A program made the position numbers and the translations under genes. The notes beneath the pieces were generated by a model, which was not told the origin of the DNA, did not search any database, and saw nothing but the letters and a program-made list of their open reading frames with translations. Of a stretch of 64,000 bases of DNA, positions 3,449 to 23,208 are shown one piece after another. Each line of letters begins with the position of its first letter. The stretch's first letter is position 1. The stretch comes from an uncultured bacterium (lineage in GTDB: Bacteria; Omnitrophota; Gorgyraeia; Zapsychrales; Aceulaceae): positions 100,872-164,871 of the forward strand of contig CALGLP010000023.1 in assembly GCA_937930175.1 (NCBI GenBank), read 5' to 3'.

Positions 3449-3455
3449 GGCCTCT

Positions 3456-6703: not shown

Positions 6704-7233
6704 CGCATCGCTCTTTTTCCAATCGCGAAAAAAGTATTTTTGTCCTTTGCGTCATAATTGTTGGTTTTTACCTTGTCTACTATTTTGGTTATCAGCAGAT
6801 GAAGGGTGACTTGGTTGCACAGCAAGAGTTGATCCTAGAAGGAAAAAAAGATTTAAGAAAATACAGCCGTATTTTGCGCGAAGAAGAGCCTATCCGTCAA
6901 AAGCTGAAAAGTTACGAGGATCTTTTTAAGCAGCAATCCTCCGACGAAGGAGAGAGGACGCGGATTCTTTCTGACATTGAGGCTGTTGCCCAAAAGGCTT
7001 CGATCAAGATCACCAACATGGAGCCGGGGCGCATGAAGAAACAGGATTTCTATAATTATTTTTCAGTGAGTGTTCAGACTCAAAGTTCTTTAAAGAAAAT
7101 CTGTGCGTTTCTCTACGCTTTAGAAGACAAGCCCTATCTTTTTCATATCGATGAAATGAGACTTGAAAAATATTCGATCCAGGCTGAGGAGCTCAAGTGC
7201 CAGTTTACGATCAGCCGATCCCTTCTTCCGTAA
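6700..7233 (+). CDS. GspM/PilO-like bitopic inner-membrane protein
   Basis: The 177-aa product has an N-terminal TM (IFVLCVIIVGFYLVYYF) followed by a coiled-coil. Its start overlaps the gspL stop (ATGA). Confidence 0.4.
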   Translation: MTHRSFSNREKSIFVLCVIIVGFYLVYYFGYQQMKGDLVAQQELILEGKKDLRKYSRILREEEPIRQKLKSYEDLFKQQSSDEGERTRILSDIEAVAQKASIKITNMEPGRMKKQDFYNYFSVSVQTQSSLKKICAFLYALEDKPYLFHIDEMRLEKYSIQAEELKCQFTISRSLLP

Positions 7234-7474: not shown

Positions 7475-10400
7475 GTGCAAAACAGGGTAGGGCATATGAT
7501 AAAGAGTATAAAAACTTATAAGAATTCTCTTTTATACAAAGCCATCATTTTGTGCCTTTTGTTCTCTTTTGGGCTCATGAGCATTGCTCCTCAAGAAGCC
7601 TTGTCTCAAACCCTGGCACCAGCTATTAGTAATACCCTCATCCCCTTAAGCCCGGCTTTCACACCTACCCTGGTTCGTGGAATACGTGTCTACCCTGACA
7701 ATCCCCTGAAGTTCGACTTTATTGTCGATTCTGGTGATTCCGGGCTTCAAGGGGATGAGTTAAAGAGCGAAAGCGAAAAGCTTATCCGCTACTTCCTGGC
7801 AAGTCTTACTCTTCCAGAGAATGATCTCTGGGTCAACCTTTCTCCCTATGAAAAAGACCGCATCGTTCCAGCAGAGCTTGGGACTACCGAGATGGGTATT
7901 GATATGCTTGCCCAAGACTATCTCTTAAAGCAAATAACTGCCTCTTTAACCAATCCTGATAGTGATCTTGGTAAAGAATTCTGGCAAAAGATTTACAAGC
8001 AATCCTATGAGAAATTCGGGACAACGAACGTTCCTGTCGACACCTTTAACAAGGTCTGGATCATGCCCGATAAGGCTGAAGTCTACGTTCAAGAGGATAA
8101 GGCCTTTGTCGTTGAATCGCGATTAAAAGTGATGTTAGAACAGGATTACCTCGCGATTCAACAAGCTCATAGCTCATCGCTCATAGCTGATAGCAAAACC
8201 AGCGAGCCAAGAGCCAAGAGCCAAGAGCTCGCCTCCCAGATTGTTAGGGAGGTTTTTATCCCTGTCCTTGAGAAAGAAGTCAATGAAGGCAAGAACTTTG
8301 CCCAGCTAAGGCAGATCTACAACAGCATTATCTTAAGCTACTGGTATAAGACGAATCTCAAGAACTCAATACTGAATAAGGTGTATGCGGATAAGAGAAA
8401 GGTTAAAGGACTAGAAGTCGTGAATAGTGAAAAGTATCTAGTATCTAGCCAAAAAAGCAATGAAGAGTCGTTAGAAAATGGCGAAGAAAAGCACCGGATA
8501 CTAGATACCAGATACCCTTCACAAACTCAGAATAATTCTTCTCTAGATACTATTCACTCTTCACCAGATACTGTTCAAATCATTTACCAACAATACCTCC
8601 AAACCTTTAAAAAAGGCGTTTGCAATATGATGAAGGTCGAGTATGACCCTTACACCAAGAAGAACATCCCCCGGAAATACTTTGCGGGAGGGGTGACGAC
8701 AGGAGACATAGAGAAGGTTTACAAAGAGACCGGCGCCCCGACCGCTGGCAGCGCACTTATTCGTAATTTTAAGAAAGCTACTTTAATAACGCTTATTTCT
8801 TTAATGCTTTTATCAGATCCTGTCCAGGCAAATATGGCAGCTGATGCTAATAAGAAAATGATTGAAGATATCATCGAAATGTTTGAAGAATCTCTTGGTC
8901 CAGAGAAGGCAAAAGAAATTGCCTATGATTATGTCAATACAAATCCAGAACTACGAGATAAGCTTCTTGCTGATGCGATCGCCAAGGCTCTTCGACCACC
9001 TGACGGGACTATTGATCTTGTTGGCATGCCAGAAGATTTTGAGGATCAAGAAATACCAGCTCCAGGGATCAATCTTGGCCGCTTTTCTTCTTTGGAATTT
9101 GATCATAATTCGTTTTCGCAAGATGCACCAAAAATAGAAAGGGATTCACTGAGAGAGGATGCCATGGCAAATGGAGAGATTGTCGATCGTCAAATAATTA
9201 TGTTGCCAGATGGCAGCAAAGTAACAATTGATTTTCTGCCATATTATTATCCTCCGGGTGGTCGTGTTGGGTCTATTGTAGACGAAAATTATATTGAGTT
9301 ATATCTCAGCGTATTCTTTGATGATATTGAAAATATTTCTATTGATATGCAGGATCCAAATAGTTTCTTAGGGTCCTTTTTAAATAAAGATTTGTTTTCG
9401 TCGAAAGAAGGAAAACTTGCTTTCCTGAAAGAGTGGATACGAACAGTCATGATTTATGAAATAACTAATGTTAATAGAAAAAAAGATCAATTTGAAGATA
9501 ACAAATTTCCAGATCTTGATAAATTGCTTGATCATTACCGTGTTCCCTATGGTAACCGTTCTTATCAGACTGCTGAAGCATTTGAGGCCTATTTGGCTAT
9601 GCTAGCATCAAGCCGAGATGCCAAAATGGTTATGGCGCAACTCTTTTTGTCAGAAATGCAAATACGAACTCCAATCCATTATGCGTCCAAGATGATCCTA
9701 AGAGAAATATTAGATACCTTAGGGTATAAAAAGTTTGTCTTCGCAAAAGAAAAGGAATTTTCTGAAAATACTGAAGAATCTATTGAGAAAGCATATATCA
9801 AGGGAGAGTATTTTCATGATTATGAAATGCTGTCAGAATTTATGCAGTTGCTTAAGGATAGCGAAATTATTCAAGCGGCAAAAGATTTGCATCGGAAAAT
9901 TTTCAACAAAGAAGCTTACAATATCGACGACTATATTTTTTCATTTATTAAGCAGTATTTTGATGAACAATGGCCTTCCAAAGACCTGTATCCTTTTAAT
10001 AATGACACCATTAATTATGAAAATCTTTCTGCGAATGAATTTCGAGAAATACTACAAAAGGCAATCAACCAATTTTCTGATGGATTTTGGACCTATAGCC
10101 CTTTCAATGAAGAACAAAAACCTGAATTATTTTTAAATATTATCAAGAAATCTCCGGTCCTTGGCCTTCAGAATTTCGGGATTGCTTTCCGCTCACTGAA
10201 CAGCAATAAAACAAGAAGGGAATTTGCTGATGGGTTGATGCTTATTTTTGAAAATAATCCTGAAATTGTTTCAACATATGCGGTTGATATTGTTGTGAAT
10301 AATTTAGATTTTTTTATGGATAAAGCATCTGGATTTAACAACAACCTCAAGAAAACACCTGAATACGAGAAAATACCGATTTTCATTTCTTCACTGAGAA

Positions 10401-13400
10401 CCCTCGCTGACTCCAAAGCACCCTTTAGCGACGTGAGCGAAGTGATAAAAGCTGCTTTAAAAAACAAGCATGCTCTCATCGTAGAATATCTAGATACGCA
10501 GATTGATTCCAATCAAATTTTAAGGGATGAGAATCATTTTAATATGTTGACCTATGCTGTTTATGAAATAGAGTTATCGCCTAATAAGAAAATGAAATAT
10601 CTCAAAGTATTGTATGACATTGCAATAAACAAAGTTAATGATTTTGAGCGATTTAAGCACATACGTGCGCTTAGTTCCTTAGTCAGATTGATCGAAGAGG
10701 ACATGCCTTTGCTGGAAGCAATAGATGGACCATTCATCGAGAATCTTAAGACTTTATTAGCCTCGAAGACTTATCCTGACTACAAGATGATGCGAAAAAC
10801 CAATGAGGTGAATGTCGCGCTCTACAATCCACTTGACCCTGAATACGTTATATCAAGATTTATAGACGCAGGATACACGAAAAGCACAAAAGATAATTTG
10901 ATTGTATTAACAAAAACGCTAAATGGGAAAAACGTAACAGTTACCCTTGATCCCACTGGAGACGCAGATAATTATCAAGGTCAGATATTCAAGCTTATGC
11001 TTGACCCAAAAATAAATATTATTAGCTACAGCGGTCATGCAGGAATGGGGGCAACTTTGTTGTTTGCTTTATATCAAGCCCCTGATTTAAAAGATAACCT
11101 GCAAGCAGGCTCAAAGATAATCGCACTCTTAGCATGCTACAGTGCACAGAATTATTTGACACAAGTTATGCAAAAATATCAATATTCTCATTTTTTTGGA
11201 ACATTAACGGATTCATATATGCCAGACGATACAGATGCGCTATTAAACTTGCTCGAGGGTTACAGCTTAGAGGAGTCTTGGGAAGAGATCAGTCGGCGCA
11301 TTTCTGAGCAGGAGCAGGAGGCTTATGGGGGAAGAGTAGAGTATATTTCTCCGAATAATGAGGAACTGTTAGATTATTTAGATTTGGATGGGGATGGTTA
11401 CCCTGATGGAAAAAATAGAGCGGAAAATATTTATTTAACGCCGTTGTCTGATATTTTTCTACTTGAACAGGAAAATTTTAATTATGAGCCTGGTGGAAAC
11501 ATAGACGAAGAAAGAATTGTTTCTAATAAAGTAGGAATCGTAACTGAGAGAGTAAAACATTTCTTTAGATACAATGATTTGCTAAAGACTTTTTCTGAAA
11601 GAATAAACCCTGGAACATTTGAGAGGCCACTGCAGGATCAACAAAATGCATTGTTTGTCGAAGAAAACCGAGTTGCCTTTCAAGACCTTTCCTATGATAT
11701 GAACGTTAATCTTGGATATCGAAACAAATCAGAAGCAGTATTGATAATGATGAGCTTGTGGGAAGCAAATAAATATTTCTCAGGGGATGATGTTTTTGAT
11801 CAAGTAAGAGGGCTTCAATTAGTTGCGGAATTTGTAAAATATTTTAATAAAGAGCATTTATTTCCACTTTTTCTGGAGAAATATAAGCTAAAGTATAAGG
11901 GTATTACGTTATCGACACTCATAAAGACACTAGATATTTATAAAACAGAAGATCGCATTGAAGCAATAAAAGAAATATTAAAGATTTTTAATTATAAGGA
12001 AATATTGAGTGAGGATGAGTTGAAAGATAAGTTGAAAAAAGAGGGATTGCTCTCGGGCTCTGCGGCAACAGGCCAGAATCTAACACCTCAAAAAGATCCT
12101 ATTTTTAAAGGTGTGTATAATCCTGAAGCTATCCCTCCGGGGGCAACCATTGAAGGTTATGGACGAAAAGTTAATAATAAAATGATTTATTATCCTTTGG
12201 CCCTGGGACAGGATTGGCTCTCTCCTGTTCTTTCTGCTATGGTGAACAACACGGATCTTTCTGTTGTTTTTAGAAGATCTCCTAAGGAGGGCCTAGCTCT
12301 TAAGGAGGGCAAAAATCCCACGAAAACCGAGGAAGTCTGGATCGTCAAGGCCGTGGCGCCGGGTGAAAAAGGCAAGAAGGCCGTGGCGTCGTCAAGTGCG
12401 AGCGTTAATCAAGGTTCAGCAAGCGTGTCGTCGTCGAATATTGTGTTCTTAAGAAATTTAAAACAATTAGAAGGGCGCACTGTTTCTTTTGACGGCAAAG
12501 AATATGCATTGAATATTGAGATAGAAGGGGAAAGCGTTAGCATGTACCTCTTTGATGATTTTGGAAGAAGAACTTATCATCCTATTGTTCGCTTGGGGAT
12601 AGATTCAAGCCACGTAGATTTGGCCATGATTGATATTTTTGAGTTTTCTTTGGGAAGCGTAGCTTTTTCTCATGACCATCCCCGTTATGGCAACGAAAAA
12701 AAAGCGATGGAAGCGATTGCGCAAGGAAGAATGGAGGAGGGCTTTGAAGATTTAGAACTCGCCAACTTGAAAGAAAAAGATCCGGATGCCTATATAAAAG
12801 AACTTATTAAAAGGCAAAACGCCACATACAATAAGAACGCAATGAATTTATCGGGAAAAGGAGTTGAACAGCAAGTTTTAAAACATATTCAAAGCACTAT
12901 TCCTCAGAATTCTTTCGCAAGCATTCTTGTGCGTTTGCCGGAGTTTCAAGTCTTTGGGATCCAATCGCCTTATGCAATTTTTTATGATGAAAAAAATGAC
13001 TTTTATAAAAAGTTAAAAGAAGATAATATTGGGCATTATTTTATTATTGAATATGAGGAAGACCGACCTAGAGCTGAGCTATTTCTGGAAGAAGGAGATT
13101 CTGTTTTAACATTAAAAGAGCTGGGAGCACTTCTTATTTTTAAAGATCCTTCTTTTTCAAAGAATTTTGCACGTGCTGGTTGGTACTGGGAAAGGGATGG
13201 GGATTTCTTAGAACTCGATGGCTTGGAAGTTATCGAGGAATTAATTAATTATCAAAACGAAGCAAGGGAGCATTATAAGCTTGTCAGCCTGGGGCTTAAA
13301 AAGGATGACCTGCTTGGCTTTACTCGGATAGATGAAAACGGTGATCCTATGATTGAGAATTTTGTTTTTCAGATTATTCTTGGCGGCACGGCCTCAGCCC

Positions 13401-14974
13401 CCGGCATTGCGTCGTTGAATATGGAAGCCGGGATTGACCACGCGACAATAAGAAAACAAGAGAAGAGCTTGGAAGAAAAGGGTAATGTGTTTATCAAATT
13501 CCTCGCTTCAGGCGCGCAGTATGGAGGCTTGCACCCGGAATTGGTTAAAACCGTCTTTTTGTCTTTTAGCACAGAGATCGAGCAAGAGCTTCTTAGGATC
13601 AAGACAAAGTGGTATCCCAATGATCCTCGGGATGTTTGGGCATTGCTGATGGATCCTCGGGCAACGCTTTTCAAAGATGACTTCAGGAAAAGTGAATTTT
13701 TGTATGAGATCCTCAGGGGCCAGTCGTCTAAGATTATCCGATACCCGGATGAATATTTAGCGCTGATCAATAGTGACGAGTTTTTGGGTATGGTTAAAAA
13801 GGCTGTAACCCAACATCAGGAGAGCCAAAAGCCCCAAGAAATTCGCATTGGTTTGGTGGGCGCAGGTTACGGGCAGGAGGCTGTGTTCTTTCCACTTTTG
13901 GTCCAGAACAAGATCCGAGAGATTTGCCGAACCTTGAACGCGCCTGAATCTACGATCCGTTTGAAGGTCAATGTATATTCCAGAAAAAATAAAATTACAG
14001 ACAAACTTAAGAAAAACGAGATTCTTTATCCGAAATCTGAGGTCATAAAAGCATTGAAATCGACGTATTTTCTTGCGGCCAAGAATAAAACCAAACCCCT
14101 GTACTCGGAGGATGAGATTGAAAGTCAGCTTAAAGGATTTTTACAGTCCCTGCCGGATGATCCCGAGGCCTTACAACGGACTGATATGCTTAATGACATC
14201 TTGAGCTTTCACGACGTCGACCTTGTTTTGTTGATCGATGTTCAGGCAAAGTCATTAGAGAAGAACGATATTCTTCTTGTTCATAATGTGTTTCAATATC
14301 TTAGGCCGAAGGACACCCCTGAGGAAACTTGGGAAAATAACGTGCATAAAGCATTTGTGTTCCTTGATTCCATTGCCTCACCAGGCGCTGTTATTTCCGT
14401 TGTTAACCAGGACAATTGGGATTCTGAAGTCTTTAAGGCGTACGAACAACAATATCGATCTGGCTCCGAATATGAACCGATCATGCCGAAATTTACTCAG
14501 AAGATGAAAAATGAATTGTTATTCGAGGGAAGAGAGTCCGCAGAGAAGGCCTTTTTTAGGAAAAAAGGCCTGGCGATGGAAACGGATGGCACCTTAATAG
14601 ATGCGAACAATGAAAGTACTGGAGGAATCGACTTTAACGCCAAAAATATGAACGTGGAAGTAAGAACAGAAGGGATAAAGGATGGTGAAAAGTTTCAAGT
14701 GTCAAGTGTCAAGGAAGGCCAAAACAATCTAACACCTAACACTTTAAACATGACACAATCTGATTCCTCAAATCCTTTCATCCTCAATTCCTCTAGCCCT
14801 ATTTTTTCTGGCAACTTTGAGGGCCTGTTTCCGGTCATCATCAGCATTACGCCTGTGACAAATTTTTATCATCTTTTAGGATTGTCTCAAGAAGAAAATC
14901 CCGAGGCCTTGCCTCAGCCTGTGGCCCAAGGCGAGCGCATCCTAGCCCTCCAACCTGCTGAAGTAAGAACATAG
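7475..14974 (+). CDS. Giant multidomain protein of 2499 aa. It has an N-terminal hydrophobic/signal-like region, a CHAT/caspase-like His-Cys dyad, a DxDxDG Ca-binding loop and a C-terminal CheR-like Rossmann methyltransferase-like region.
   Basis: The ORF is uninterrupted for 7.5 kb. N-terminal hydrophobic stretch: KAIILCLLFSFGLMSIAPQEALSQ. Clan-CD-like dyad: NIISYSGHAGMG ... KIIALLACYSAQN, about 35 aa apart. Ca-binding loop: DYLDLDGDGYPDGKN. CheR-like motifs: IRIGLVGAGYGQEA ... DILLVHNVFQYL ... SPGAVISV. Confidence 0.7.
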   Translation: MQNRVGHMIKSIKTYKNSLLYKAIILCLLFSFGLMSIAPQEALSQTLAPAISNTLIPLSPAFTPTLVRGIRVYPDNPLKFDFIVDSGDSGLQGDELKSESEKLIRYFLASLTLPENDLWVNLSPYEKDRIVPAELGTTEMGIDMLAQDYLLKQITASLTNPDSDLGKEFWQKIYKQSYEKFGTTNVPVDTFNKVWIMPDKAEVYVQEDKAFVVESRLKVMLEQDYLAIQQAHSSSLIADSKTSEPRAKSQELASQIVREVFIPVLEKEVNEGKNFAQLRQIYNSIILSYWYKTNLKNSILNKVYADKRKVKGLEVVNSEKYLVSSQKSNEESLENGEEKHRILDTRYPSQTQNNSSLDTIHSSPDTVQIIYQQYLQTFKKGVCNMMKVEYDPYTKKNIPRKYFAGGVTTGDIEKVYKETGAPTAGSALIRNFKKATLITLISLMLLSDPVQANMAADANKKMIEDIIEMFEESLGPEKAKEIAYDYVNTNPELRDKLLADAIAKALRPPDGTIDLVGMPEDFEDQEIPAPGINLGRFSSLEFDHNSFSQDAPKIERDSLREDAMANGEIVDRQIIMLPDGSKVTIDFLPYYYPPGGRVGSIVDENYIELYLSVFFDDIENISIDMQDPNSFLGSFLNKDLFSSKEGKLAFLKEWIRTVMIYEITNVNRKKDQFEDNKFPDLDKLLDHYRVPYGNRSYQTAEAFEAYLAMLASSRDAKMVMAQLFLSEMQIRTPIHYASKMILREILDTLGYKKFVFAKEKEFSENTEESIEKAYIKGEYFHDYEMLSEFMQLLKDSEIIQAAKDLHRKIFNKEAYNIDDYIFSFIKQYFDEQWPSKDLYPFNNDTINYENLSANEFREILQKAINQFSDGFWTYSPFNEEQKPELFLNIIKKSPVLGLQNFGIAFRSLNSNKTRREFADGLMLIFENNPEIVSTYAVDIVVNNLDFFMDKASGFNNNLKKTPEYEKIPIFISSLRTLADSKAPFSDVSEVIKAALKNKHALIVEYLDTQIDSNQILRDENHFNMLTYAVYEIELSPNKKMKYLKVLYDIAINKVNDFERFKHIRALSSLVRLIEEDMPLLEAIDGPFIENLKTLLASKTYPDYKMMRKTNEVNVALYNPLDPEYVISRFIDAGYTKSTKDNLIVLTKTLNGKNVTVTLDPTGDADNYQGQIFKLMLDPKINIISYSGHAGMGATLLFALYQAPDLKDNLQAGSKIIALLACYSAQNYLTQVMQKYQYSHFFGTLTDSYMPDDTDALLNLLEGYSLEESWEEISRRISEQEQEAYGGRVEYISPNNEELLDYLDLDGDGYPDGKNRAENIYLTPLSDIFLLEQENFNYEPGGNIDEERIVSNKVGIVTERVKHFFRYNDLLKTFSERINPGTFERPLQDQQNALFVEENRVAFQDLSYDMNVNLGYRNKSEAVLIMMSLWEANKYFSGDDVFDQVRGLQLVAEFVKYFNKEHLFPLFLEKYKLKYKGITLSTLIKTLDIYKTEDRIEAIKEILKIFNYKEILSEDELKDKLKKEGLLSGSAATGQNLTPQKDPIFKGVYNPEAIPPGATIEGYGRKVNNKMIYYPLALGQDWLSPVLSAMVNNTDLSVVFRRSPKEGLALKEGKNPTKTEEVWIVKAVAPGEKGKKAVASSSASVNQGSASVSSSNIVFLRNLKQLEGRTVSFDGKEYALNIEIEGESVSMYLFDDFGRRTYHPIVRLGIDSSHVDLAMIDIFEFSLGSVAFSHDHPRYGNEKKAMEAIAQGRMEEGFEDLELANLKEKDPDAYIKELIKRQNATYNKNAMNLSGKGVEQQVLKHIQSTIPQNSFASILVRLPEFQVFGIQSPYAIFYDEKNDFYKKLKEDNIGHYFIIEYEEDRPRAELFLEEGDSVLTLKELGALLIFKDPSFSKNFARAGWYWERDGDFLELDGLEVIEELINYQNEAREHYKLVSLGLKKDDLLGFTRIDENGDPMIENFVFQIILGGTASAPGIASLNMEAGIDHATIRKQEKSLEEKGNVFIKFLASGAQYGGLHPELVKTVFLSFSTEIEQELLRIKTKWYPNDPRDVWALLMDPRATLFKDDFRKSEFLYEILRGQSSKIIRYPDEYLALINSDEFLGMVKKAVTQHQESQKPQEIRIGLVGAGYGQEAVFFPLLVQNKIREICRTLNAPESTIRLKVNVYSRKNKITDKLKKNEILYPKSEVIKALKSTYFLAAKNKTKPLYSEDEIESQLKGFLQSLPDDPEALQRTDMLNDILSFHDVDLVLLIDVQAKSLEKNDILLVHNVFQYLRPKDTPEETWENNVHKAFVFLDSIASPGAVISVVNQDNWDSEVFKAYEQQYRSGSEYEPIMPKFTQKMKNELLFEGRESAEKAFFRKKGLAMETDGTLIDANNESTGGIDFNAKNMNVEVRTEGIKDGEKFQVSSVKEGQNNLTPNTLNMTQSDSSNPFILNSSSPIFSGNFEGLFPVIISITPVTNFYHLLGLSQEENPEALPQPVAQGERILALQPAEVRT

Positions 14975-15146: not shown

Positions 15147-15974
15147 ATGAGCTATTATCAAGCACTGCATTGCTATAAAGAACCATTTTCGTTAAGTCCG
15201 GATCCGGATTTTCTTTATTATTCGCAAGAGCATGCCACGGTTTTAAAACGCTTGGAGATCGCGGTGCGCCTCAAGAAGGGATTGAGCATTGTCTTAGGCG
15301 ATGTGGGGGCAGGCAAGACCACGATTTCGCGGGCGTTATTTCAATCCTTTAGCGGGGAGGAAGATAAGTTTATTTTTCATATGATTTTGGATCCAGATTT
15401 TAAGAATGAGTATCAGTTTTTAGCACATTTGACCAAGATGTTTGGGGTGAGCCCTTTTTTTCGCTCATCTATGGATCAGCGTCAAGCCATTGAGCAGTAT
15501 CTTTTTCGCAAGGCTGTGGAAGAAGGCAAGACCGTGGTCTTAGTCATTGATGAAAGTCAAAAGTTGACCCTGCCTTTTATTGAAATTTTGCGAACCCTTC
15601 TTAACTATGAAACCAATGAATATAAGCTTTTGCAACTTGTTCTTTTTGGGCAGATGGAATTGCTGCCGCGGATTAAGGATGTGAAAAATTTTATGGATCG
15701 CGTGGCCTTAAAATATATTATCAATCCTCTGGATGAACAAGAAACCGCGCAGATGATCCGTTTTCGTTTGGCCATGGCTGGTCTCGACGGACACCGTGAA
15801 GTTTTTACCCCTGAAGCGCTTAAGAAAGTCTACGAAGCAACCCAAGGGTATCCACGAAAAATTACGTTGTTGTGCCATAATGCCTTGGAGCGCTTGGTTA
15901 TGGATGGTTGCGAGACTGTAGGCGGGGATATGATCGAGGCCCTGCTCGATGAAGAAAAAAGGTGGCGTGCCTAA
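15147..15974 (+). CDS. gspA: ExeA/GspA-family AAA ATPase (T2SS protein A / MshM-like)
   Basis: Walker A motif (LSIVLGDVGAGKTTI). The ~275-aa size fits the family. The conserved ExeA region (GYPRKITLLCHNALE) is present. The next gene is a small bitopic partner. Confidence 0.7.
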   Translation: MSYYQALHCYKEPFSLSPDPDFLYYSQEHATVLKRLEIAVRLKKGLSIVLGDVGAGKTTISRALFQSFSGEEDKFIFHMILDPDFKNEYQFLAHLTKMFGVSPFFRSSMDQRQAIEQYLFRKAVEEGKTVVLVIDESQKLTLPFIEILRTLLNYETNEYKLLQLVLFGQMELLPRIKDVKNFMDRVALKYIINPLDEQETAQMIRFRLAMAGLDGHREVFTPEALKKVYEATQGYPRKITLLCHNALERLVMDGCETVGGDMIEALLDEEKRWRA

Positions 15975-16546
15975 TGCGAGAGAATCTTCCGGAAGAAAAG
16001 TTGCTTAAGTTGATTCGTACGAAAAAAGGAGAGGAGCAGAATCCTCTTGCGCAGCCGACACCTAAAGCGTCGGAAGGCGTTGATCTTAAATATTTCTTTT
16101 TTTTGGTGAATGGGGTCTTAATCCTTGCGGCGCTTGGATTGTTAGGATTTTTAGCCTATCATCTTTTTTTTGTTGTTGACGAAAAGCCATTGGTTATCCC
16201 TCAGGAGGTAGCGGTGACTCCTCCAGATGAATTGCTTGAACCTCAAGGGATTGTGGTAGAGAAGAAGCCTTTTGAGTTTTATAGTGAGCAATTTGCTAAG
16301 CGTGATTTGTTTACGCGGTCTCTTAAGGAAGTTGCAGCGAGTGCAAGCGTTGACTTGACCAAACGCTACAAGCTTGTGGGGATTGTTTTAGGTGGCGTTC
16401 CGGAGGCGATCATTGAAGATCTGACGGCGAAGACTACAAAGTTTGTTCATGAAGGTGATCGTTTGGATGCCGTGGAAGTCAAAAGCATTAAAGAGGGACG
16501 GATTGTTTTTCTTCAGGAAGGTCTCGAGATTGAGCTCAAGCAATAG
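15974..16546 (+). CDS. Bitopic membrane protein, possible GspB/ExeB-like or GspC-like partner of ExeA
   Basis: One TM segment (FFFLVNGVLILAALGLLGFLAYHLFFVV). Its start overlaps the exeA stop (TAATG). It lies between exeA and the secretin gene. Confidence 0.35.
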   Translation: MRENLPEEKLLKLIRTKKGEEQNPLAQPTPKASEGVDLKYFFFLVNGVLILAALGLLGFLAYHLFFVVDEKPLVIPQEVAVTPPDELLEPQGIVVEKKPFEFYSEQFAKRDLFTRSLKEVAASASVDLTKRYKLVGIVLGGVPEAIIEDLTAKTTKFVHEGDRLDAVEVKSIKEGRIVFLQEGLEIELKQ

Positions 16547-16744
16547 GATATTTGATAAAAATTGGGGATTAAAAGGAATTGTTGCAAAGAGTTTGATATA
16601 ATAATATTAAACTTTTTGTTTTGCTAATGAAATTAGTAGCAGATTCATTTTCTCGCCAAAGACAGCGAGATAAATTTGCCTGTCAATACAATAATGGCGG
16701 GCTCATTGGGACTTCGCTAAAAGACAGCGGAGTAAATTCGCACT

Positions 16745-16781
16745 TTTAAGTTATGTTCACTAGCGTTCCATAACTTAAGTG
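16745..16781. promoter_or_regulatory. 10-bp inverted repeat (ttaagttatg-N13-cataacttaa) just upstream of the secretin RBS and start. Candidate operator or RNA hairpin.
   Basis: The inverted repeat is visible in the sequence. It ends about 15 nt before the RBS (aaaggag) of gspD. Confidence 0.3.
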
Positions 16782-16797
16782 CTCATTTAAAGGAGCT

Positions 16798-18525
16798 ATG
16801 ATGAAGATGAGAAAAAAATTATGGATAAGTTTTTGCGTACTTGGCCTGGTTTTGGGTATGCGGCATGATGTTGCTGCTCAAAAAGCTCCTGGTGTCGTTT
16901 CGCAAACTCCTTTAGAGGTTCAGCAAGCCCTTGATGAAATGGAGCGAAGGGATGCTCTGGTCGTGCCTGTTGCTGGTGATGATTTCCCAAGGGAAAATGC
17001 TTTTATGGACCCTGAAGGCGGCTTTGCGCAGGATGATCCAGTTGTTGCCGCAGGATCTTCAGAGGGTGAAGTTTTAGCGCAAGGTGTTGTGGAGGGGAGG
17101 CCTTCGTTGATTCTTGATGTCCTTGAGCTTAAAGATATGGATATCGGTGATGTTTTGAAACTTATTTCTAAAAAAAGTGGGCTCAACATCATTTCAGGTA
17201 AGAATGTTGTTGGCAAGATAACAATTTATTTGAAGAACGTTGATGTGCGCGATGCCTTGCGGATTATCCTTGAGGCGAATAATCTGGCGTATGTTGAAGA
17301 TAAAGGCATTATCAAGGTTATTCCAGGACAGGAGTTTGAGACTACCTTTGGGTACAAGTTTGGACAAGATCTGACAACCAAGATTATTGAGTTGAAATAC
17401 GCGAAAGTAGAAGATGTGACGGCGGTGCTTAATCAGCTTAAGGGTCAGGCTGGCAAGATATCTTCCGACGGCATATCAAATACGATTATCCTTATCGATC
17501 GCTTAGACAAAGTCCTTTTGATGGAAGATATGATTAAGCGCATGGATATTCCGGTTCTTACCAAGGTGTTTGAGCTTAAATATGCCAAGGCGGAAGACAT
17601 TACAAAGAACGTAGAAACTCTTTTATCAAAGAATGTTGGCAAGATTGAATTTGATAAACGATCGAATAAGCTTTTTATTACGGATACGTTAGACAAGCTT
17701 AAAGAAGTTGCGAAGATGCTTCAGGCCTTTGACCAGCGGCATTCTGAGGTCATGATCGAGGCCAAGATCGTTCAGGTTACATTGAGTGATGACTATAAAC
17801 TGGGTATTGATTGGGAAGCGATTGTGAGTGATTTTCATAATTTAACGCTGGCTAGTCAATTTCCTGTCTTTCAGTCAGTAGTTGCTGGTCAGGTCGTTGA
17901 TGACAACAGTGATCGAGGAAAGCTTAAGATTGGAACACTTGCTGCTGATGATTATGAAGTCTTAATTGAAGCATTGGATGTTGTTGGGAAGACCAATGTC
18001 TTGTCTAACCCGCGTATTACGGTAATCAACAATGAAGAGGCCAAGATCCTTGTTGGATCAAACGAGCCTTATGTGACATCTCAAACTACAACGAGCTCTT
18101 CGGGTCCAGCGACGACAGCTGAAACCATTAATTTTATTGAGGTGGGTGTGAAGCTTTTTGTAACGCCGACGATTCATGGCGATGGCTATATCACAATGAA
18201 GATTAGGCCAGAGGTCAGTTCTGCTGCAAATTTCTTACTCACGAGCACGAATAATAAAATTCCTATTGTAGAAACATCTCAGGCTGAAACAATAGTTATG
18301 GTTAAGGATAATGCTACGGTTGTAATCGGCGGACTCATTAAGGATGAAGAGAACCATACGGTTAATAAAGTTCCTGTGTTGGGGGATGTGCCTTTCTTGG
18401 GTCGTATTTTTCGCAGCGAAACGAGAACCAAAGATAAGACAGAGATCGTGATCTTCTTGACGCCTAAAATTGTGACTGGCGAAAATCCTTCGAAAACAAA
18501 CAATTCGGCAGAAAGTTCAAAATAG
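16798..18525 (+). CDS. gspD: Secretin GspD/PilQ (outer-membrane channel)
   Basis: Signal peptide present. The C-terminal secretin domain motifs are present (NPRITVINNEEAKILVGSNEPY ... VPVLGDVPFLGRIFRSETRTKDKTEIVIFLTPKIV). Confidence 0.85.
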   Translation: MMKMRKKLWISFCVLGLVLGMRHDVAAQKAPGVVSQTPLEVQQALDEMERRDALVVPVAGDDFPRENAFMDPEGGFAQDDPVVAAGSSEGEVLAQGVVEGRPSLILDVLELKDMDIGDVLKLISKKSGLNIISGKNVVGKITIYLKNVDVRDALRIILEANNLAYVEDKGIIKVIPGQEFETTFGYKFGQDLTTKIIELKYAKVEDVTAVLNQLKGQAGKISSDGISNTIILIDRLDKVLLMEDMIKRMDIPVLTKVFELKYAKAEDITKNVETLLSKNVGKIEFDKRSNKLFITDTLDKLKEVAKMLQAFDQRHSEVMIEAKIVQVTLSDDYKLGIDWEAIVSDFHNLTLASQFPVFQSVVAGQVVDDNSDRGKLKIGTLAADDYEVLIEALDVVGKTNVLSNPRITVINNEEAKILVGSNEPYVTSQTTTSSSGPATTAETINFIEVGVKLFVTPTIHGDGYITMKIRPEVSSAANFLLTSTNNKIPIVETSQAETIVMVKDNATVVIGGLIKDEENHTVNKVPVLGDVPFLGRIFRSETRTKDKTEIVIFLTPKIVTGENPSKTNNSAESSK

Positions 18526-18529
18526 CCTC

Positions 18530-19564
18530 ATGAAAAAGGAGATTAAGGGCAGTTGCCTTTTGAGCGTCATCATTCTTGGTCTTCTTTTTTTGCATGGATG
18601 CGCGTCCGTGCCACCCCCCACGCCTTCTTCGCAAGAGCCGGATGTTATTCTTAAAGATCTGTGTGTTCGCTATGGAATTAGTTGCGTTGTGGATACGGTG
18701 AGTCAAGTAATTACTCTTGAAAAGCAGGATTTGTGCGCCAAGGCGATTGTCGGTAGCGACATTGTCATGGTGGATAACGATAAGATTAATCTGAGTAGCC
18801 CTGTGCGCATGAGTCAGGGTGTTGTTTATATTCCCGCTGATTTTAAAACAAAGGTGATCTCTCCGTTACTTAAGAAAGTTTCCTCGATTAAGGGCGCTTT
18901 TTGTATTATGCTTGATGCCGGCCACGGAGGGGATAATTGGGGGGGTGTAGGAGCTCTAGGGACAAAAGAAAAAGATGTTGTTTTAGATATTACTAAGCGA
19001 CTCAAAAGCTTGCTAGAGGAAAAAGGGATTGATGTTAAGCTGACGCGCGCGGATGATCGATTTCTTTCTTTGGAGCAAAGAGCTGATTTGGCTAATCAAG
19101 AACATGTCGATCTTTTTGTTAGTATCCATGCCAATATTGCCCAGAATCGGCAGGCCAAGGGATTTGAAGTTTTCTGTTTACGCCCTCTTGATTTTAAAGA
19201 AAGAAAAGAGGTCTTGGATCCCGAGAAGTATCATAAGATGTTTCAAGGATATAAAATGAAACAAAACGATATGCTTCTCAAGAAAACCGTGATCGACATG
19301 CTTAGTGATTATAAAAATTATGAATCTAATCGCCTGGCACGCTCGTTAGCTCAAGAAGTTTCTGTTAATATCAATTTACGTAACCGCGGGGACAAGGAAG
19401 CAGGTTTTTATGTTTTAAAGTATACTCTTGCTCCGGCGGTTTTGATTGAGGTTGGATTTTTATCTAATCGCAATGAAGAAAAAAATCTTAGGACGCCAAG
19501 TTATCGTCAGAAAATTGCTGAGGGTCTTGCGCGGAGTTTGACACGTTATGTGAACACGAGGTAA
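18530..19564 (+). CDS. N-acetylmuramoyl-L-alanine amidase (Amidase_3 / AmiC-like) lipoprotein
   Basis: Lipobox LLFLHGCAS. Amidase_3 motifs are present (IMLDAGHGGDNWG ... DLFVSIHANI ... GFLSN). Confidence 0.8.
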   Translation: MKKEIKGSCLLSVIILGLLFLHGCASVPPPTPSSQEPDVILKDLCVRYGISCVVDTVSQVITLEKQDLCAKAIVGSDIVMVDNDKINLSSPVRMSQGVVYIPADFKTKVISPLLKKVSSIKGAFCIMLDAGHGGDNWGGVGALGTKEKDVVLDITKRLKSLLEEKGIDVKLTRADDRFLSLEQRADLANQEHVDLFVSIHANIAQNRQAKGFEVFCLRPLDFKERKEVLDPEKYHKMFQGYKMKQNDMLLKKTVIDMLSDYKNYESNRLARSLAQEVSVNINLRNRGDKEAGFYVLKYTLAPAVLIEVGFLSNRNEEKNLRTPSYRQKIAEGLARSLTRYVNTR

Positions 19565-19568
19565 GACA

Positions 19569-20366
19569 ATGCATAAAAATCATTGTCCCATTGGTGTTTT
19601 TGATTCTGGACTTGGAGGCTTGACCGCGGTCAAGGAGTTGATGCGTCAACTGCCTCAAGAGGATATTGTTTATTTTGGGGATACGGCCCGCGTGCCTTAT
19701 GGCACAAAGTCTAAAGAGGCGATCATTCGTTTTTCGCAAGAGAACGCTGAGTTTTTGATTAAGCATAAGGTTAAAATGATCGTTGTGGCTTGCAATTCTT
19801 CATCGAGTTTTGCCTTAGAATATTTGCGCAAAAAATATTCTTTGCCGATTGTGGGCGTGATTGTTCCTGGCGCGTGCAAGGCCGTGCAAATGACCCGCAA
19901 GCAGCTTATTGGTGTGATCGCCACTTCAGCAACGATCAATAGCGGGGAGTATGAACGGACCATCAAGGGTATTGATAAAAATATACGAGTTGTGAACACT
20001 GCCTGTCCGCTTTTTGTTCCATTAGTTGAGGAAGGGTGGTTTCAAGGCCCTGTAACAGAGGGGGCGGCTAAGATTTATTTGAAGGGTGTGATGCGCGCTA
20101 AGGTGGATGTCCTTATTTTAGGGTGTACGCATTATCCATTGCTCAAAAGCGTGATTCAAAAGATTGTTGGCCCCAAAGTTTATTTAGTGGACTCTGCGAA
20201 AGAAATTGCGAATAATGTGAAGGAGCTTCTGGGGGTCATGGGCATTGCCAATGTGAAAAGTCATCGTGGGCAGCAAAAATTTTTTGTGAGTGATAAGCCG
20301 CAGCATTTTAAAAAACTTGCGAAACGGTTTTTGGGCTGTGATATTAAAAATATTACCAAGGTGTGA
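19569..20366 (+). CDS. murI: Glutamate racemase
   Basis: N-terminal IGVFDSGLGGLT motif. Second active-site region VVACNSSS. The 265-aa size fits. Confidence 0.9.
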   Translation: MHKNHCPIGVFDSGLGGLTAVKELMRQLPQEDIVYFGDTARVPYGTKSKEAIIRFSQENAEFLIKHKVKMIVVACNSSSSFALEYLRKKYSLPIVGVIVPGACKAVQMTRKQLIGVIATSATINSGEYERTIKGIDKNIRVVNTACPLFVPLVEEGWFQGPVTEGAAKIYLKGVMRAKVDVLILGCTHYPLLKSVIQKIVGPKVYLVDSAKEIANNVKELLGVMGIANVKSHRGQQKFFVSDKPQHFKKLAKRFLGCDIKNITKV

Positions 20367-20734
20367 TCATGTATGAATTGACGGTTAAGGGTGAGTTTGC
20401 AGCGTCGCACTCCCTTCGCGATTATGAAGGCAAGTGCAAGAATTTACACGGACATACTTGGCGCGTGGATATTGTTGTTGCTGGTAAGGCGCTTAATAAT
20501 GTGGGGATGGTGATCGACTTTAAAGAAATCAAAAGCCATCTACACGCGTTTCTTGAAACCCTTGATCATCAGCATTTAAATGATTTGGAACATTTTAAAG
20601 TCGTGAATCCAACCTCGGAACAGATTGCCAAGTATCTTTTTGATTGCCTCAAAGAAAAGTTGCACACCGTTAAGGTCAAAAAAGTCACTGTGTGGGAATC
20701 GGACAAGTCTGGCGCTTCTTATGACGAAGCCTAA
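20363..20734 (+). CDS. queD: 6-carboxy-5,6,7,8-tetrahydropterin synthase (QueD / PTPS family)
   Basis: CxxxHGH zinc motif (CKNLHGHTWRVDIVV). The product is 123 aa and the gene is immediately followed by queC/E/F. Confidence 0.8.
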   Translation: MIMYELTVKGEFAASHSLRDYEGKCKNLHGHTWRVDIVVAGKALNNVGMVIDFKEIKSHLHAFLETLDHQHLNDLEHFKVVNPTSEQIAKYLFDCLKEKLHTVKVKKVTVWESDKSGASYDEA

Positions 20735-21401
20735 AAATAATAAAGCGGTTGTTTTGCTTTCTGGAGGACTTGATTCAGCGACAACCCTTTACGTTGCTCT
20801 CCATCAAGGGTATTGGCCTCTAGCACTTATTTTTGATTATGGGCAACGTCACAGAAAAGAAATCATCCGGGCTAAGGCTATTGCAAAGCGCGCAGGTTGT
20901 CCTTGCAAGGTGGTTAAGCTTTCGTTCCCTTGGAAAGGTTCTGCGTTGACCGATCGCGCGATGGATATTGCCCCACACCGGCCTTTTAAGCGTAGGCAAG
21001 AAGCAATCCCTTCCACTTATGTCCCCTCGAGAAATATTATCTTTCTAAGTGTTGCTGCTTCCTGGGCGGAGGTCATAGGTGCGCAGGCGATTTTTATCGG
21101 TGCTAATGCCATTGATTATTCGGGATATCCGGATTGTCGGCCTAAGTTTTTAAACGCTTTTCAGACCATGCTTTCTCTTGGGACAAAAACAGGTGTCGAG
21201 AATAAAAAGATTAAGATTTGCGCGCCACTTTTACGCAAAACAAAACAAGAGATCATTCGCTTAGGCGTAAGCCTCAATGTTCCTTATCGTCTGACATGGT
21301 CGTGCTATCAAGGAAAACAAAAGCCCTGTGGTGTTTGCGATAGTTGTCAGTTGCGTCAAAAAGGTTTTGCAGCGCTTAAAATGAAAGATCCGGGTTTGTG
21401 A
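20721..21401 (+). CDS. queC: 7-cyano-7-deazaguanine synthase
   Basis: PP-loop motif AVVLLSGGLDS. C-terminal Cys cluster (CGVCDSC). The ATG at 20721 avoids the long overlap with queD implied by the track start at 20625. Confidence 0.85.
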   Translation: MTKPKNNKAVVLLSGGLDSATTLYVALHQGYWPLALIFDYGQRHRKEIIRAKAIAKRAGCPCKVVKLSFPWKGSALTDRAMDIAPHRPFKRRQEAIPSTYVPSRNIIFLSVAASWAEVIGAQAIFIGANAIDYSGYPDCRPKFLNAFQTMLSLGTKTGVENKKIKICAPLLRKTKQEIIRLGVSLNVPYRLTWSCYQGKQKPCGVCDSCQLRQKGFAALKMKDPGL

Positions 21402-22087
21402 TGAGCGCGAGAATTAGTGAAATTTTTAAATCCATTCAAGGCGAAGGAATCTATCTGGGTGTGTCCCAGGTTTTTGTCCGCTTCTTTGGATGCAGCTTAA
21501 ATTGCAGAATTTGTGATACGCCCCAAGGCAAAGATCTTGCGTATGGTTTTAAAGAATACACGGCGCAAGAACTTTTGAGCCAGGTGTGGTTGTTGTCGCA
21601 AGGCATTCATTCGGTGAGCCTTTCGGGTGGCGAGCCTTTAGAGCAAAAAGAATTTTTGAAAAGTTTTTTACTTCTTCTTAAAGGTAAGGGGCTCAAGACT
21701 TATTTAGAAACAAACGGGATCTTGGCGGAGTCTCTGCAGGATGTGATTGGCCTGGTTGATATTGTGGCGATGGATATGAAACTTCCAAGCTCGACGGGGG
21801 AAAGGGCATTCTGGCCGGAGCATCGCGCTTTTCTTCATATCGCTAAGCAACGAGATGTTTTTGTTAAAGTCGTGATGACGCTTGGGACGCTCTTTGATGA
21901 TGTTGCGAACGCGGCAAGACTTGCATCAGAGGTGAATCGTGGTATAGTATTTATCCTGCAGCCTAATTTTTTTGAGTCAAGCGCGAAACTGTTAGAGATC
22001 TGTCAAGAGGCGCATGGGATTGCAAGAGAATATTTAGATGATGTTCGTATTATTCCGCAGATGCATAAACATTTAGGAATCCGATGA
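21398..22087 (+). CDS. queE: 7-carboxy-7-deazaguanine synthase (radical SAM)
   Basis: Radical-SAM Cys triad (FFGCSLNCRICDT). The gene sits between queC and queF, with ATGA start/stop overlap. Confidence 0.8.
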   Translation: MMSARISEIFKSIQGEGIYLGVSQVFVRFFGCSLNCRICDTPQGKDLAYGFKEYTAQELLSQVWLLSQGIHSVSLSGGEPLEQKEFLKSFLLLLKGKGLKTYLETNGILAESLQDVIGLVDIVAMDMKLPSSTGERAFWPEHRAFLHIAKQRDVFVKVVMTLGTLFDDVANAARLASEVNRGIVFILQPNFFESSAKLLEICQEAHGIAREYLDDVRIIPQMHKHLGIR

Positions 22088-22491
22088 TGGGAAAAAGAAA
22101 GAAAACATACGAAGGATTGCAAGAAAACGTCCGTACGCTGAAGACCCCTAGCATTGATGTTTGGCGTAATAAATACGCAGATCGTGATTATGTTGTGGAT
22201 TTAACTACTGATGAGTTTACCTGTATTTGTCCTAAAACAGGTTTGCCGGATTTTGCCACGATTAAGGTGTATTATAAACCTGATCAAAAATGTCTTGAGC
22301 TTAAATCATTTAAATATTATTTAATGTTTTATCGGGATATTGGTATTTTTCATGAACATCTGACCAATCGGATTTTAGATGATATTATTAAGGCGTCTAA
22401 TCCTCGCTGGGTCAAGGTTGAGGTTGCGATGAAACCCCGGGGAGGTATTGAGACGGTGGTGACGGCAGAGTATCCTCAAACAAAACGATGA
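22084..22491 (+). CDS. queF: NADPH-dependent 7-cyano-7-deazaguanine reductase (unimodular type)
   Basis: The catalytic Cys region (FTCICPKTGLPDFATIKVYY) and the QueF motif (EHLTNRI, E-x-h-T-N-R) are present. The product is 135 aa. Confidence 0.8.
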   Translation: MMGKRKKTYEGLQENVRTLKTPSIDVWRNKYADRDYVVDLTTDEFTCICPKTGLPDFATIKVYYKPDQKCLELKSFKYYLMFYRDIGIFHEHLTNRILDDIIKASNPRWVKVEVAMKPRGGIETVVTAEYPQTKR

Positions 22492-22500
22492 AAGGTTTTT

Positions 22501-23208
22501 ATGCCAAGAGCTCATGGACGTCGTGCGGATGAACTGAGATCGGTCAAGATCACCAAGCCTTATTTAAAGCATGCGCCAGGCTCATGCTTGATCGAGTTTG
22601 GCGAAACTAAGGTTATCTGCAGCGCCATTTTGGAAAATATGGTTCCGCTTTTTTTAAAAGGTACGGGTACGGGTTGGTTGACAGCTGAGTATGGCATGCT
22701 TCCCTGTTCTTGCGATCAGCGTGTGGCACGCAATAAGACATCCGGAAGGACTTTTGAGATCCAGCGTTTGATTGGGCGTTCGCTTCGTAGTATTGTTGAT
22801 TTTTCTGCCATTGGCGAAAGAACGATTAAGATTGATTGCGATGTGATCCAGGCGGATGGAGGCACAAGGACAGCTGCGATCACTGGAAGTTATGTTGCTT
22901 TGGTATGCCTTTTGAAACAATGTAAAAAAGAATTGCGATGGCTAGAGCTTCCTTTGAAAGATATTGTCGCGGCGGTTAGCGTTGGGGTTCTTAAAGGTGA
23001 GACGTTGCTTGATCTAAACTTTGAAGAAGATTCTAAGGCAGATATGGATATGAACGTTGTCATGCGCGGATGCGGTGATTTTATTGAAGTGCAAGGGACA
23101 GCGGAAGGTGTTCCTTTTTCACGCGCCAGAATGAATGCAGCCCTAGATTTAGCAGAAAAGGGAATTGAAGAGCTTTTTGATATTCAAAAGAATGCTTTGG
23201 CAGAGTAA
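22501..23208 (+). CDS. rph: Ribonuclease PH
   Basis: The N-terminus ([33 protein letters not shown]) and [14 protein letters not shown] are classic RNase PH motifs. Confidence 0.9.

Follow-up and report, generated by a model that had tools for sequence, protein, structure and literature searches.

Does a stretch of protein that recalls the methyltransferase CheR in three short motifs belong to that enzyme's lineage, and what could such an enzyme do within a long protein that has a signal-peptide-like start? We addressed this question for a 64,000-nucleotide (nt) stretch of DNA from an uncultured Omnitrophota bacterium (contig CALGLP010000023.1, positions 100,872 to 164,871, hereafter the window), in which a first-pass annotation had pointed to CheR-like motifs near the C-terminus of a 2499-amino-acid (aa) protein. 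We are highly confident that the domain has a CheR-lineage class I methyltransferase fold. The best explanation overall, which we regard as likely, is that aa ~2000–2345 form a diverged CheR-lineage protein methyltransferase dependent on S-adenosylmethionine (SAM), carried as one interchangeable cargo module of an Omnitrophota-specific protein family. The long open reading frame (ORF) and the features of the domain are given below; the subdomains were delimited with the alignment and the AlphaFold2 model, and the counterparts in CheR were taken from the alignment.

7475..14974, + strand: long ORF, host of the CheR-like domain; 2499 aa, a single continuous ORF
13472..13825, + strand: helical N-subdomain of the CheR-like module, aa ~2000–2117, including IIRYPDEY
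13739-13741, + strand: codon of R2089, counterpart of the CheR catalytic Arg98
13826..14509, + strand: alpha/beta (class I methyltransferase) subdomain, aa ~2118–2345
13853..13882, + strand: motif I, Gly-rich SAM loop LVGAGYGQEA, aa 2127–2136, paired with CheR SAAASTGEEP
13979..13981, + strand: S2169, end of beta2, counterpart of CheR Asp154
14207..14224, + strand: beta3 motif FHDVDL, aa 2245–2250, with D2249 paired with CheR Asn212
14282..14299, + strand: HNVFQY, aa 2270–2275, paired with CheR RNVMIY
14378..14401, + strand: SPGAVISV, aa 2302–2309, beta5, paired with CheR KPDGLLF

Relatives and fold of the CheR-like domain

We scanned 1.84 billion representative proteins exhaustively with HMMER, using aa 2010–2400 as the query. 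The scan returned 15 relatives, with E values from 1.7e-24 to 5.7e-4 and 28–37% identity. Seven of the 15 were stand-alone proteins of ~300–415 aa, and the others were segments inside Omnitrophota proteins of 1,100–6,400 aa. Five stand-alone relatives exceeded the gathering score of 27 for the Pfam CheR family PF01739 (P0131, 41.3 bits; P0129, 35.6; P0126, 34.8; P0134, 31.3; P0121, 29.5). An exact-sequence look-up showed that P0126 and P0138, the latter a cluster-mate of P0127, bear the RefSeq name "CheR family methyltransferase" (Sphaerospermopsis, Phormidium ambiguum). A genome scan with six stand-alone members revealed further members in a Thiotrichaceae metagenome-assembled genome (MAG), in Candidatus Albibeggiatoa and in more cyanobacteria, and the module recurred as cargo in other Omnitrophota long proteins (P0028, P0040, P0069, P0122, P0124, P0125, P0128, P0130, P0133).

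The profile evidence rested on alignment A1, which comprised 16 family segments with the window's query placed first. When the A1 profile was compared with the Protein Data Bank (PDB), the matches at E < 0.1 were CheR chains only: Pseudomonas aeruginosa CheR1 (5xly/5xlx/5y4r, ~1.4e-7), Salmonella CheR (1bc5/1af7, ~5.6e-5) and Bacillus subtilis CheR (5ftw, 0.022). Alignment of A1 with Escherichia coli CheR (NC_000913.3) by hhalign gave a probability of 95.1% and an E value of 3.1e-8, covering 143 alpha/beta-domain columns.

An AlphaFold2 model of the domain, with A1 as input, had a mean pLDDT (per-residue confidence score) of 84.6 and a predicted template modeling score (pTM) of 0.86. The model predicted the two-subdomain fold of CheR, in which a helical N-domain is followed by a class I alpha/beta domain into which a beta-subdomain is inserted. 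A Foldseek comparison of the model with the PDB placed CheR in all of the top seven matches (E 3.8e-9 to 6.4e-7, target TM score 0.48–0.65); these were full-length or C-domain chains, and the CheR structural alignments spanned both subdomains at an identity of merely 11–13%. Generic class I methyltransferases began at E 4e-5, roughly four orders of magnitude behind CheR. The CheR-like Rossmann (class I methyltransferase) fold proposed in the first-pass annotation was thus borne out by the model and its Foldseek matches, by the A1 profile, and by the five homologues above the PF01739 threshold. The outcome named there as fatal to the idea, a predicted structure with no methyltransferase or Rossmann fold, did not occur.

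Local phmmer and hmmsearch comparisons bounded the domain at aa ~2000–2345 (nt ~13472–14509). The interval flagged originally, 13840–14420, captured the alpha/beta core and missed the helical N-subdomain. A local search found no second copy of the domain within the window. In several relatives, an accessory domain of ~130 aa (KIYRPRVHFFALG, then PLVVIDDKFYSIVVNTD) immediately precedes the CheR-like domain; it is carried by P0123 (570 aa), P0135 (593 aa), P0124 (aa 1495–1579) and P0028 (aa 489–598), and the window's protein lacks it. P0123 and P0135 are made up of a hydrophobic, signal-like N-terminus followed by the accessory and CheR-like domains.

Motifs and active-site residues

All three motifs lay where they had been reported in ORF 7475–14974: IRIGLVGAGYGQEAVFF at aa 2123–2139 (nt 13841–13891), DILLVHNVFQYL at aa 2265–2276 (nt 14267–14302), and SPGAVISV. 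The hhalign comparison placed them in the correct register with CheR, pairing AAASTGEEP with VGAGYGQEA, CRNVMIYF with VHNVFQYL, and KPDG with SPGA. The distance from motif I to HNV was 142 aa, compared with ~107 aa for the E. coli CheR equivalent (R118 to D225), in agreement with the earlier remark that the spacing is longer than in CheR. The surplus residues were located in the beta2–beta3 insertion, which is ~35 aa longer than that of CheR.

Judged from the sequence, the motif resemblance taken alone is not above chance. BLASTP against E. coli CheR gave an E value of 0.46 with the wrong register, phmmer found no match among all PDB chains, and Pfam returned nothing significant for the whole protein plus five pieces of it. 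A word-indexed protein search with the domain alone or with A1 also found nothing; its sensitivity was low, since its database includes the domain-bearing proteins P0028, P0040 and P0069. The resemblance reached significance because of the intermediates, the profiles and the structure.

In Salmonella CheR, the two residues central to catalysis are Arg98 and Tyr235; the R98A change abolishes swarming (PMC3447774). The numbering of both residues is identical in E. coli CheR. In the window's protein, R2089 (in IIRYPDEY) pairs with the Arg of the CheR motif (F/W)FR(D/E) and is at least 90% conserved across the family, and Y2275 (in HNVFQYL) pairs with Tyr235, with Tyr present in 12 of the 16 A1 members. 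Six residues were invariant in the family (G2129, G2133, Y2185, L2250, H2270, N2271), and Y2132, Q2134 and E2135 were at least 90% conserved. The Gly-rich loop aligned without gaps with CheR motif I (A-x-x-S-T-G-E-E-P-Y-S), keeping the G, G and E positions and replacing Thr with Tyr and Glu with Gln. The CheR beta-subdomain hairpin, RYF...G..R....L...(V/L).F..(N/D)LL, was likewise recognizable in the family. In A1 the invariant residues grouped on the CheR cofactor and active-site motifs, a clustering that is expected of an active site under selection.

These residues suggest how the domain might work. SAM would be bound in a pocket formed by the G-A-G-Y-G-Q-E loop, D2249 and H2270–N2271, and a protein side chain would receive the methyl group; by analogy with CheR, the likeliest candidate is a glutamate carboxylate. 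From residue conservation, we consider it somewhat probable that the domain both binds SAM and catalyzes methyl transfer. A carboxylate acceptor on a protein is a tentative suggestion, drawn solely from the analogy with CheR. The module is one of many swappable enzyme cargos lying between a shared N-module and a shared C-module, to which we now turn.

The carrier protein family and its localization

The remaining features of the host protein that bear on its family are as follows. The true start of the long ORF is likely the ATG at 7496 (M8).

7496..7609, + strand: signal-peptide-like N-terminus (MIKSIKTYKNS, LLYKAIILCLLFSFGLMSI, APQEALSQ), hydropathy peak 2.15
7610..8734, + strand: conserved N-module, aa ~46–420, terminating in KVEYDPYTKKNIPRKYFAGG (homologue comparison)
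8771..8845, + strand: weak second hydrophobic segment, aa 433–457, FKKATLITLISLMLLSDPVQANMAA, directly after the N-module, hydropathy 1.33
14597..14914, + strand: conserved C-module, aa ~2375–2480, GGIDFN... plus the hydrophobic stretch GLFPVIISITPVTNFYHLLGL (homologue comparison)

Searching with the full-length protein retrieved 2,187 matches, each covering 14–22% of the query; family content, sources and coverage were taken from the best 120 of these. Among the 120, all proteins with a named source came from Omnitrophota. BLAST coverage showed that aa 1 to ~470 were common to all 120, aa ~2375–2480 to many, and the middle to few. The family layout is therefore a signal-peptide-like N-terminus, the N-module, variable cargo, and a ~100-aa C-module with an internal hydrophobic stretch. 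More than 2,187 proteins have the N-module of ~370 aa in common. Over ten members, its mean column identity was 57%, and 90 of its columns were invariant; in homologues it ends with the consensus KVEYDPYxKKNIPRKYFxGG, and several N-module paralogues occur per genome. It had no match in Pfam, NCBIfam or the PDB, including a comparison of its sequence profile with the PDB. The C-module matched 85 of the 134 proteins in the collected set and had no NCBIfam match. Its hydrophobic stretch sits ~30–50 residues before the C-terminus, and the module might be a sorting or anchoring signal.

The cargo of the best 120 relatives included, by Pfam content, several classes of SAM methyltransferases, DOT1, GNAT, kinases, phosphatases, HATPase and response-regulator receivers, together with metabolic enzymes (triose-phosphate isomerase, phosphoglucomutase, phosphoenolpyruvate (PEP)-utilising enzymes, isocitrate lyase, malate synthase and acyl-CoA dehydrogenase). 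Neither MCPsignal nor CheB was found among the Pfam domains of these 120 members. The CheR-like module is a rare cargo: of the 120, only P0028, P0040 and P0069 carry it. The first-pass annotation had called a CheR-type fold fused to a CHAT-like protease in a putatively exported protein an unusual combination; it is less so than was supposed, because Omnitrophota long proteins routinely bear methyltransferase and other enzyme domains.

The same annotation had described the protein as putatively exported, a description that the conserved signal-peptide-like N-terminus supports at the sequence level; the cargo itself may lie on either side of the membrane. A strong N-terminal hydrophobic segment was present in 94 of 118 homologues, and in the homologues this signal-like segment closes with a conserved A-x-A-Q (ALAQ/AFAQ). 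The second hydrophobic segment was strong (KD19 > 1.6) in just 27 of the 118. About half of the inspected homologues had a second signal-peptide-like element 20–35 residues past the N-module, made of basic residues, 11–15 hydrophobic residues and then A-x-A or AQ, which is too short and too weak for a confident transmembrane helix. This segment could be a stop-transfer helix, an internal signal-peptide-like element or a relic of gene fusion. A cytoplasmic location of the cargo, which this segment had first suggested, is not kept as a firm claim because the segment is strong in 27 of 118 homologues only, short and signal-peptide-like.

Cofactors point toward cytoplasmic cargo: the CheR-like enzyme requires SAM, and other cargo requires ATP, coenzyme A (CoA) or NAD. 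The conserved signal-like N-terminus, the placement of the gene within a secretion operon (see below), and the layout of P0123 and P0135 point toward export. The site of action is split three ways: the protein could be tethered to the inner membrane of its own cell while the cargo stays within, it could be exported to act in or on another cell, or it could be non-catalytic.

Gene context

The long ORF sits between a gspM-like gene and the gspA-like and secretin genes of a type II secretion/type IV pilus-like operon, whose genes in the window are listed here.

41-685, + strand: gspE fragment, upstream of the long ORF
818-2047, + strand: gspF, upstream
2063-2512, + strand: gspG, upstream
2482-3075, + strand: gspH, upstream
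2999-3448 and 3429-4181, + strand: two small ORFs without a Pfam match, upstream
4160-5257, + strand: gspK, upstream
5258-6703, + strand: pilM/N (gspL-like), upstream
6700-7233, + strand: pilO/gspM, upstream
15147-15974, + strand: AAA_22 (GspA/ExeA-like), downstream
15962-16546, + strand: 194-aa ORF without a Pfam match, downstream
16798-18525, + strand: GspD secretin, downstream
18530-19564, + strand: Amidase_3 gene, downstream

Position suggests that the small ORFs at 2999–3448 and 3429–4181 encode minor pseudopilins (GspI/J-like) and that the ORF at 15962–16546 encodes a GspB-like partner of AAA_22.

Comparison with P0006 showed how the cargo behaves at this locus. P0006 is a protein of 2531 aa whose N-module is 61% identical to that of the window's protein. 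Downstream of it (contig L011), genes for AAA_22, a 190-aa ORF, secretin, Amidase_3, Asp/Glu racemase, PTPS, QueC, QueE, QueF and RNase PH follow in the same order as at 15147–23208 of the window. Because this downstream series is shared, we regard P0006 as a positional orthologue of the long ORF. A local search found no CheR-like module in P0006; cargo is thus exchanged even where the locus is conserved. Upstream of P0006 the context differs, with a divergent SurA/Rotamase_2 gene and no gspE–M genes there. The paralogues P0028, P0004 and P0003 lie among housekeeping genes, away from secretion genes, and their neighborhoods ruled out placement in a secretion operon as a general trait of the family.

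Alternative explanations

Several observations weigh against the interpretation of the domain as a diverged CheR-lineage methyltransferase. Even with the cut-off relaxed to E ≤ 10, Pfam matched neither CheR nor any methyltransferase family to the whole protein or to the excised region, and NCBIfam gave no match for the protein. The window's own sequence did not reach the PF01739 gathering score, such that the profile search proposed in the first-pass annotation failed for this sequence and succeeded for five homologues. CheR Asp154 is replaced by Ser2169; in A1 the position is occupied by Asn, Ser or Gly, with Asp in P0133 alone, and P0130 (outside A1) likewise has Asp. CheR Arg230 is replaced by a His (H2270) that is invariant in the family. 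In class I methyltransferases, the acidic residue that ends beta2 binds the ribose hydroxyls of SAM. These two changes could therefore weaken or abolish SAM binding; a literature search on the contacts of CheR with S-adenosylhomocysteine (SAH), such as Asp154, found none. The window's protein, P0123 and P0135 all have a signal-peptide-like start, and outside the cytoplasm no SAM would be expected. No methyl-accepting chemotaxis protein (MCP), CheA, CheB or CheW was found among the 30 window ORFs scanned (reaching 53 kb), and the neighborhoods of the stand-alone homologues contained no che genes and no common context, and were unrelated to secretion. Lastly, the 2499-aa host protein contains no MCP-type methylation consensus, for which 0.11 matches were expected by chance. 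From this gene context, the domain quite probably acts outside any chemosensory pathway. We classify it as a variant rather than a plain CheR member because its sequence lies under the curated threshold, the acidic residue of beta2 is replaced, and chemosensory partners were not found.

The residue changes are also the ground for supposing that the module is catalytically dead, with its fold kept for binding, scaffolding, or sensing of SAM or SAH, and without methyl transfer. On that explanation the loss of the ribose-binding acidic residue (D154 to S2169), the change of R230 to His and the sequence's position under all curated family thresholds would be signs of lost function, and a predicted signal peptide would put the domain where SAM is absent. 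The module has nonetheless retained R2089 and Y2275, and its invariant residues fall on the cofactor and active-site motifs although the relatives are only 21–30% identical to the query. The Ser/Asn substitution is family-wide and conserved, which does not look like random decay, and a few members have Asp. We therefore consider a dead module unlikely; the Asp154/Arg230 pattern would be a conserved alternative state instead of decay, and it is compatible with activity, although no proof thereof.

We judge it similarly unlikely that the protein is an exported effector, released or presented by means of its signal peptide and the adjacent type II secretion-like machine, whose module would methylate prey or host proteins with the SAM of those cells. 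The N- and C-modules would then serve in export or translocation, with the shuffled middle acting as payload in the manner of polymorphic or MARTX toxins. Consistent with this are the family-wide signal-peptide-like N-terminus with A-x-A-Q, the position of the gene between gspM-like and gspA/secretin genes with downstream synteny shared with P0006, the variation of cargo between these positional orthologues (P0006 being without the CheR-like module), and the architecture of P0123 and P0135, in which a signal-like N-terminus stands before the accessory and CheR-like domains. Passages of published proposals also have Omnitrophota giant proteins beside loci like type II secretion systems acting on prey. 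However, many paralogues (P0028, P0004, P0003) are distant from secretion genes, housekeeping-type cargo (triose-phosphate isomerase, phosphoglucomutase and acyl-CoA dehydrogenase, for example) is odd for effectors, and the second hydrophobic segment in a minority of members could bring the cargo back to the cytoplasm. A bolder version, to which we give a lower probability still, is that the module is a payload of an Omnitrophota polymorphic effector system not described before, comprising thousands of proteins that share a signal peptide open to cleavage and, as mediators of export or translocation, the N-module of ~370 aa and the C-module of ~100 aa. If this were true, shuffled methyltransferase, kinase, acetyltransferase and metabolic payloads would be sent into prey or host cells via the flanking type II secretion-like machine, and the present domain would methylate the victim's proteins using the victim's SAM.

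Two further explanations concern the fold itself. The domain could be a generic class I methyltransferase, acting for instance on small molecules or RNA, with no specific relation to CheR and with motifs that all Rossmann-type methyltransferases share. Foldseek did list many non-CheR class I enzymes at a probability near 1 (NNMT, CysG, SgvM), and some homologues gave weak Pfam matches to Methyltransf_31 or Methyltransf_12. This explanation is nevertheless very unlikely: CheR chains led these enzymes by the ~four orders of magnitude noted above and aligned across both subdomains, the A1 profile found CheR only in the PDB, and the CheR-specific FFR-type Arg motif, RYF...V.F..(N/D)LL hairpin insertion and NV.(I/Q)Y motif are present. 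A chance likeness confined to the three short motifs, in a protein that lacks any methyltransferase fold, would account for the lack of significance in pairwise and curated-model searches with the lone sequence, and was refuted by the agreement of transitive homology, the PDB profile, hhalign, and AlphaFold2 with Foldseek; we regard it as extremely improbable.

Comparison with known systems

The diverged CheR-lineage methyltransferase that we favor was compared with established CheR enzymes (PF01739/PF03705; 1AF7/1BC5, 5XLY/5Y4R, 5FTW). They have the two-subdomain fold in common, and also the order and register of the motifs: the FFR-type Arg, the Gly-rich loop with (E/Q)-E-P, the beta-hairpin insertion, (N/D)-L-L, N-V-x-x-Y, and a beta5 of the P-G-G type. 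Equivalents of the catalytic Arg98 and Tyr235 are present in the window's domain. Unlike CheR, the domain is only 11–13% identical to these enzymes, lies below Pfam detection, and resides inside a 2499-aa protein with a signal-peptide-like start. It also differs in having Ser for Asp154, His for Arg230 and the beta2–beta3 insertion that is ~35 aa longer, and no che genes accompany it among the scanned window ORFs.

The nearest relatives outside Omnitrophota are orphan CheR family methyltransferases of ~300 aa from cyanobacteria and Beggiatoaceae (WP_200325923.1 of Sphaerospermopsis, WP_073597399.1 of Phormidium ambiguum, and that of the Thiotrichaceae MAG), with E values of 1e-17 to 1e-4 and 28–34% identity over the matched stretches. 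They share G..G, Y-P, D-L-L, H-N-V-x-Q-Y and Asn/Ser at the Asp154 position with the window's domain, whereas they stand alone, have no signal peptide and score above the Pfam CheR threshold. Fusions of CheR with tetratricopeptide repeats (TPR), such as WspC and FrzF, are cases of a CheR domain serving outside flagellar chemotaxis, and for them conservation of R98 and Y235 is a criterion of activity (PMC3447774). The window's protein is like them in that a CheR domain is joined to other modules. In contrast, those fusions belong to che-type clusters and methylate MCP-like receptors, and no such partner was seen for the window's protein.

Passages of two preprints describe Omnitrophota long and giant proteins that hold multiple enzymes, methyltransferases among them, and that are encoded next to type II secretion-like loci (West-Roberts et al. 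2023, bioRxiv 10.1101/2023.11.21.568195; bioRxiv 10.64898/2026.06.07.730766). As far as those passages go, the window's protein agrees with these in phylum, in type of locus (gspD/E/F-like genes nearby) and in multi-enzyme content; its ORF of 7.5 kb is smaller than the giant size stated there, a gene of ~25 kb or more (West-Roberts 2023). The searched text of both preprints contains no mention of a CheR-type domain, its lone word-start match to "CheR" being unlikely to be the enzyme, and their passages contain no description of the shared N- and C-modules.

On the evidence so far, the window's domain is a divergent representative of a familiar enzyme superfamily and brings no new mechanism, and its unusual carrier has already been reported in outline. 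The value of the result lies in giving an enzyme label to a stretch that every curated model missed, and in linking an overlooked CheR-like clade, composed of the cyanobacterial/Beggiatoaceae orphans and the Omnitrophota cargo, to testable chemistry. It also sharpens a puzzle that the long proteins of Omnitrophota had already posed, namely that cofactor-dependent enzymes of cytoplasmic type are found in them behind signal peptides and beside secretion genes. The carrier family and its localization are more interesting questions than the methyltransferase fold, and a small, well-modeled domain with known catalytic residues offers a practical handle for distinguishing membrane-tethered enzyme arrays from exported predatory or parasitic effectors.

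Other regions of the protein and the window

The first-pass annotation had also described a CHAT-like protease in the middle of the long protein.

10622..11914, + strand: His/Cys region, aa ~1050–1480, with invariant G1187-H1188 and C1221

The suggestion was not confirmed. The region has no Pfam match in any of five members and no PDB profile match, and an AlphaFold2 model of moderate quality (pLDDT 67.6), which limits the test, yielded nothing in Foldseek at E ≤ 1e-3, and its top 50 matches included no caspase, gingipain, CHAT or other clan CD protein. The region does contain the His-then-Cys dyad after hydrophobic strands that is characteristic of clan CD: H1188 (nt 11036–11038) lies in INIISYSGH(1188)AG and C1221 (nt 11135–11137) in KIIALLAC(1221), each is preceded by a hydrophobic strand, and neither residue varies among five homologues. 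BLAST identity of the region to P0002 and P0005 was 37–39%. A Cys-His hydrolase of another alpha/beta fold is possible.

Base composition varied along the long ORF, with a GC content of 0.35–0.39 at 8001–12000, in the middle of the ORF, versus 0.41–0.46 at the ORF ends and in the rest of the window. The low GC of the central ORF could reflect foreign or fast-evolving cargo segments. Three DUF748/AsmA-like ORFs, of the type associated with outer-membrane lipid transport, occur within 20 kb, at 25008–27878 (− strand), 31657–32619 (+ strand) and 45166–46533 (+ strand).

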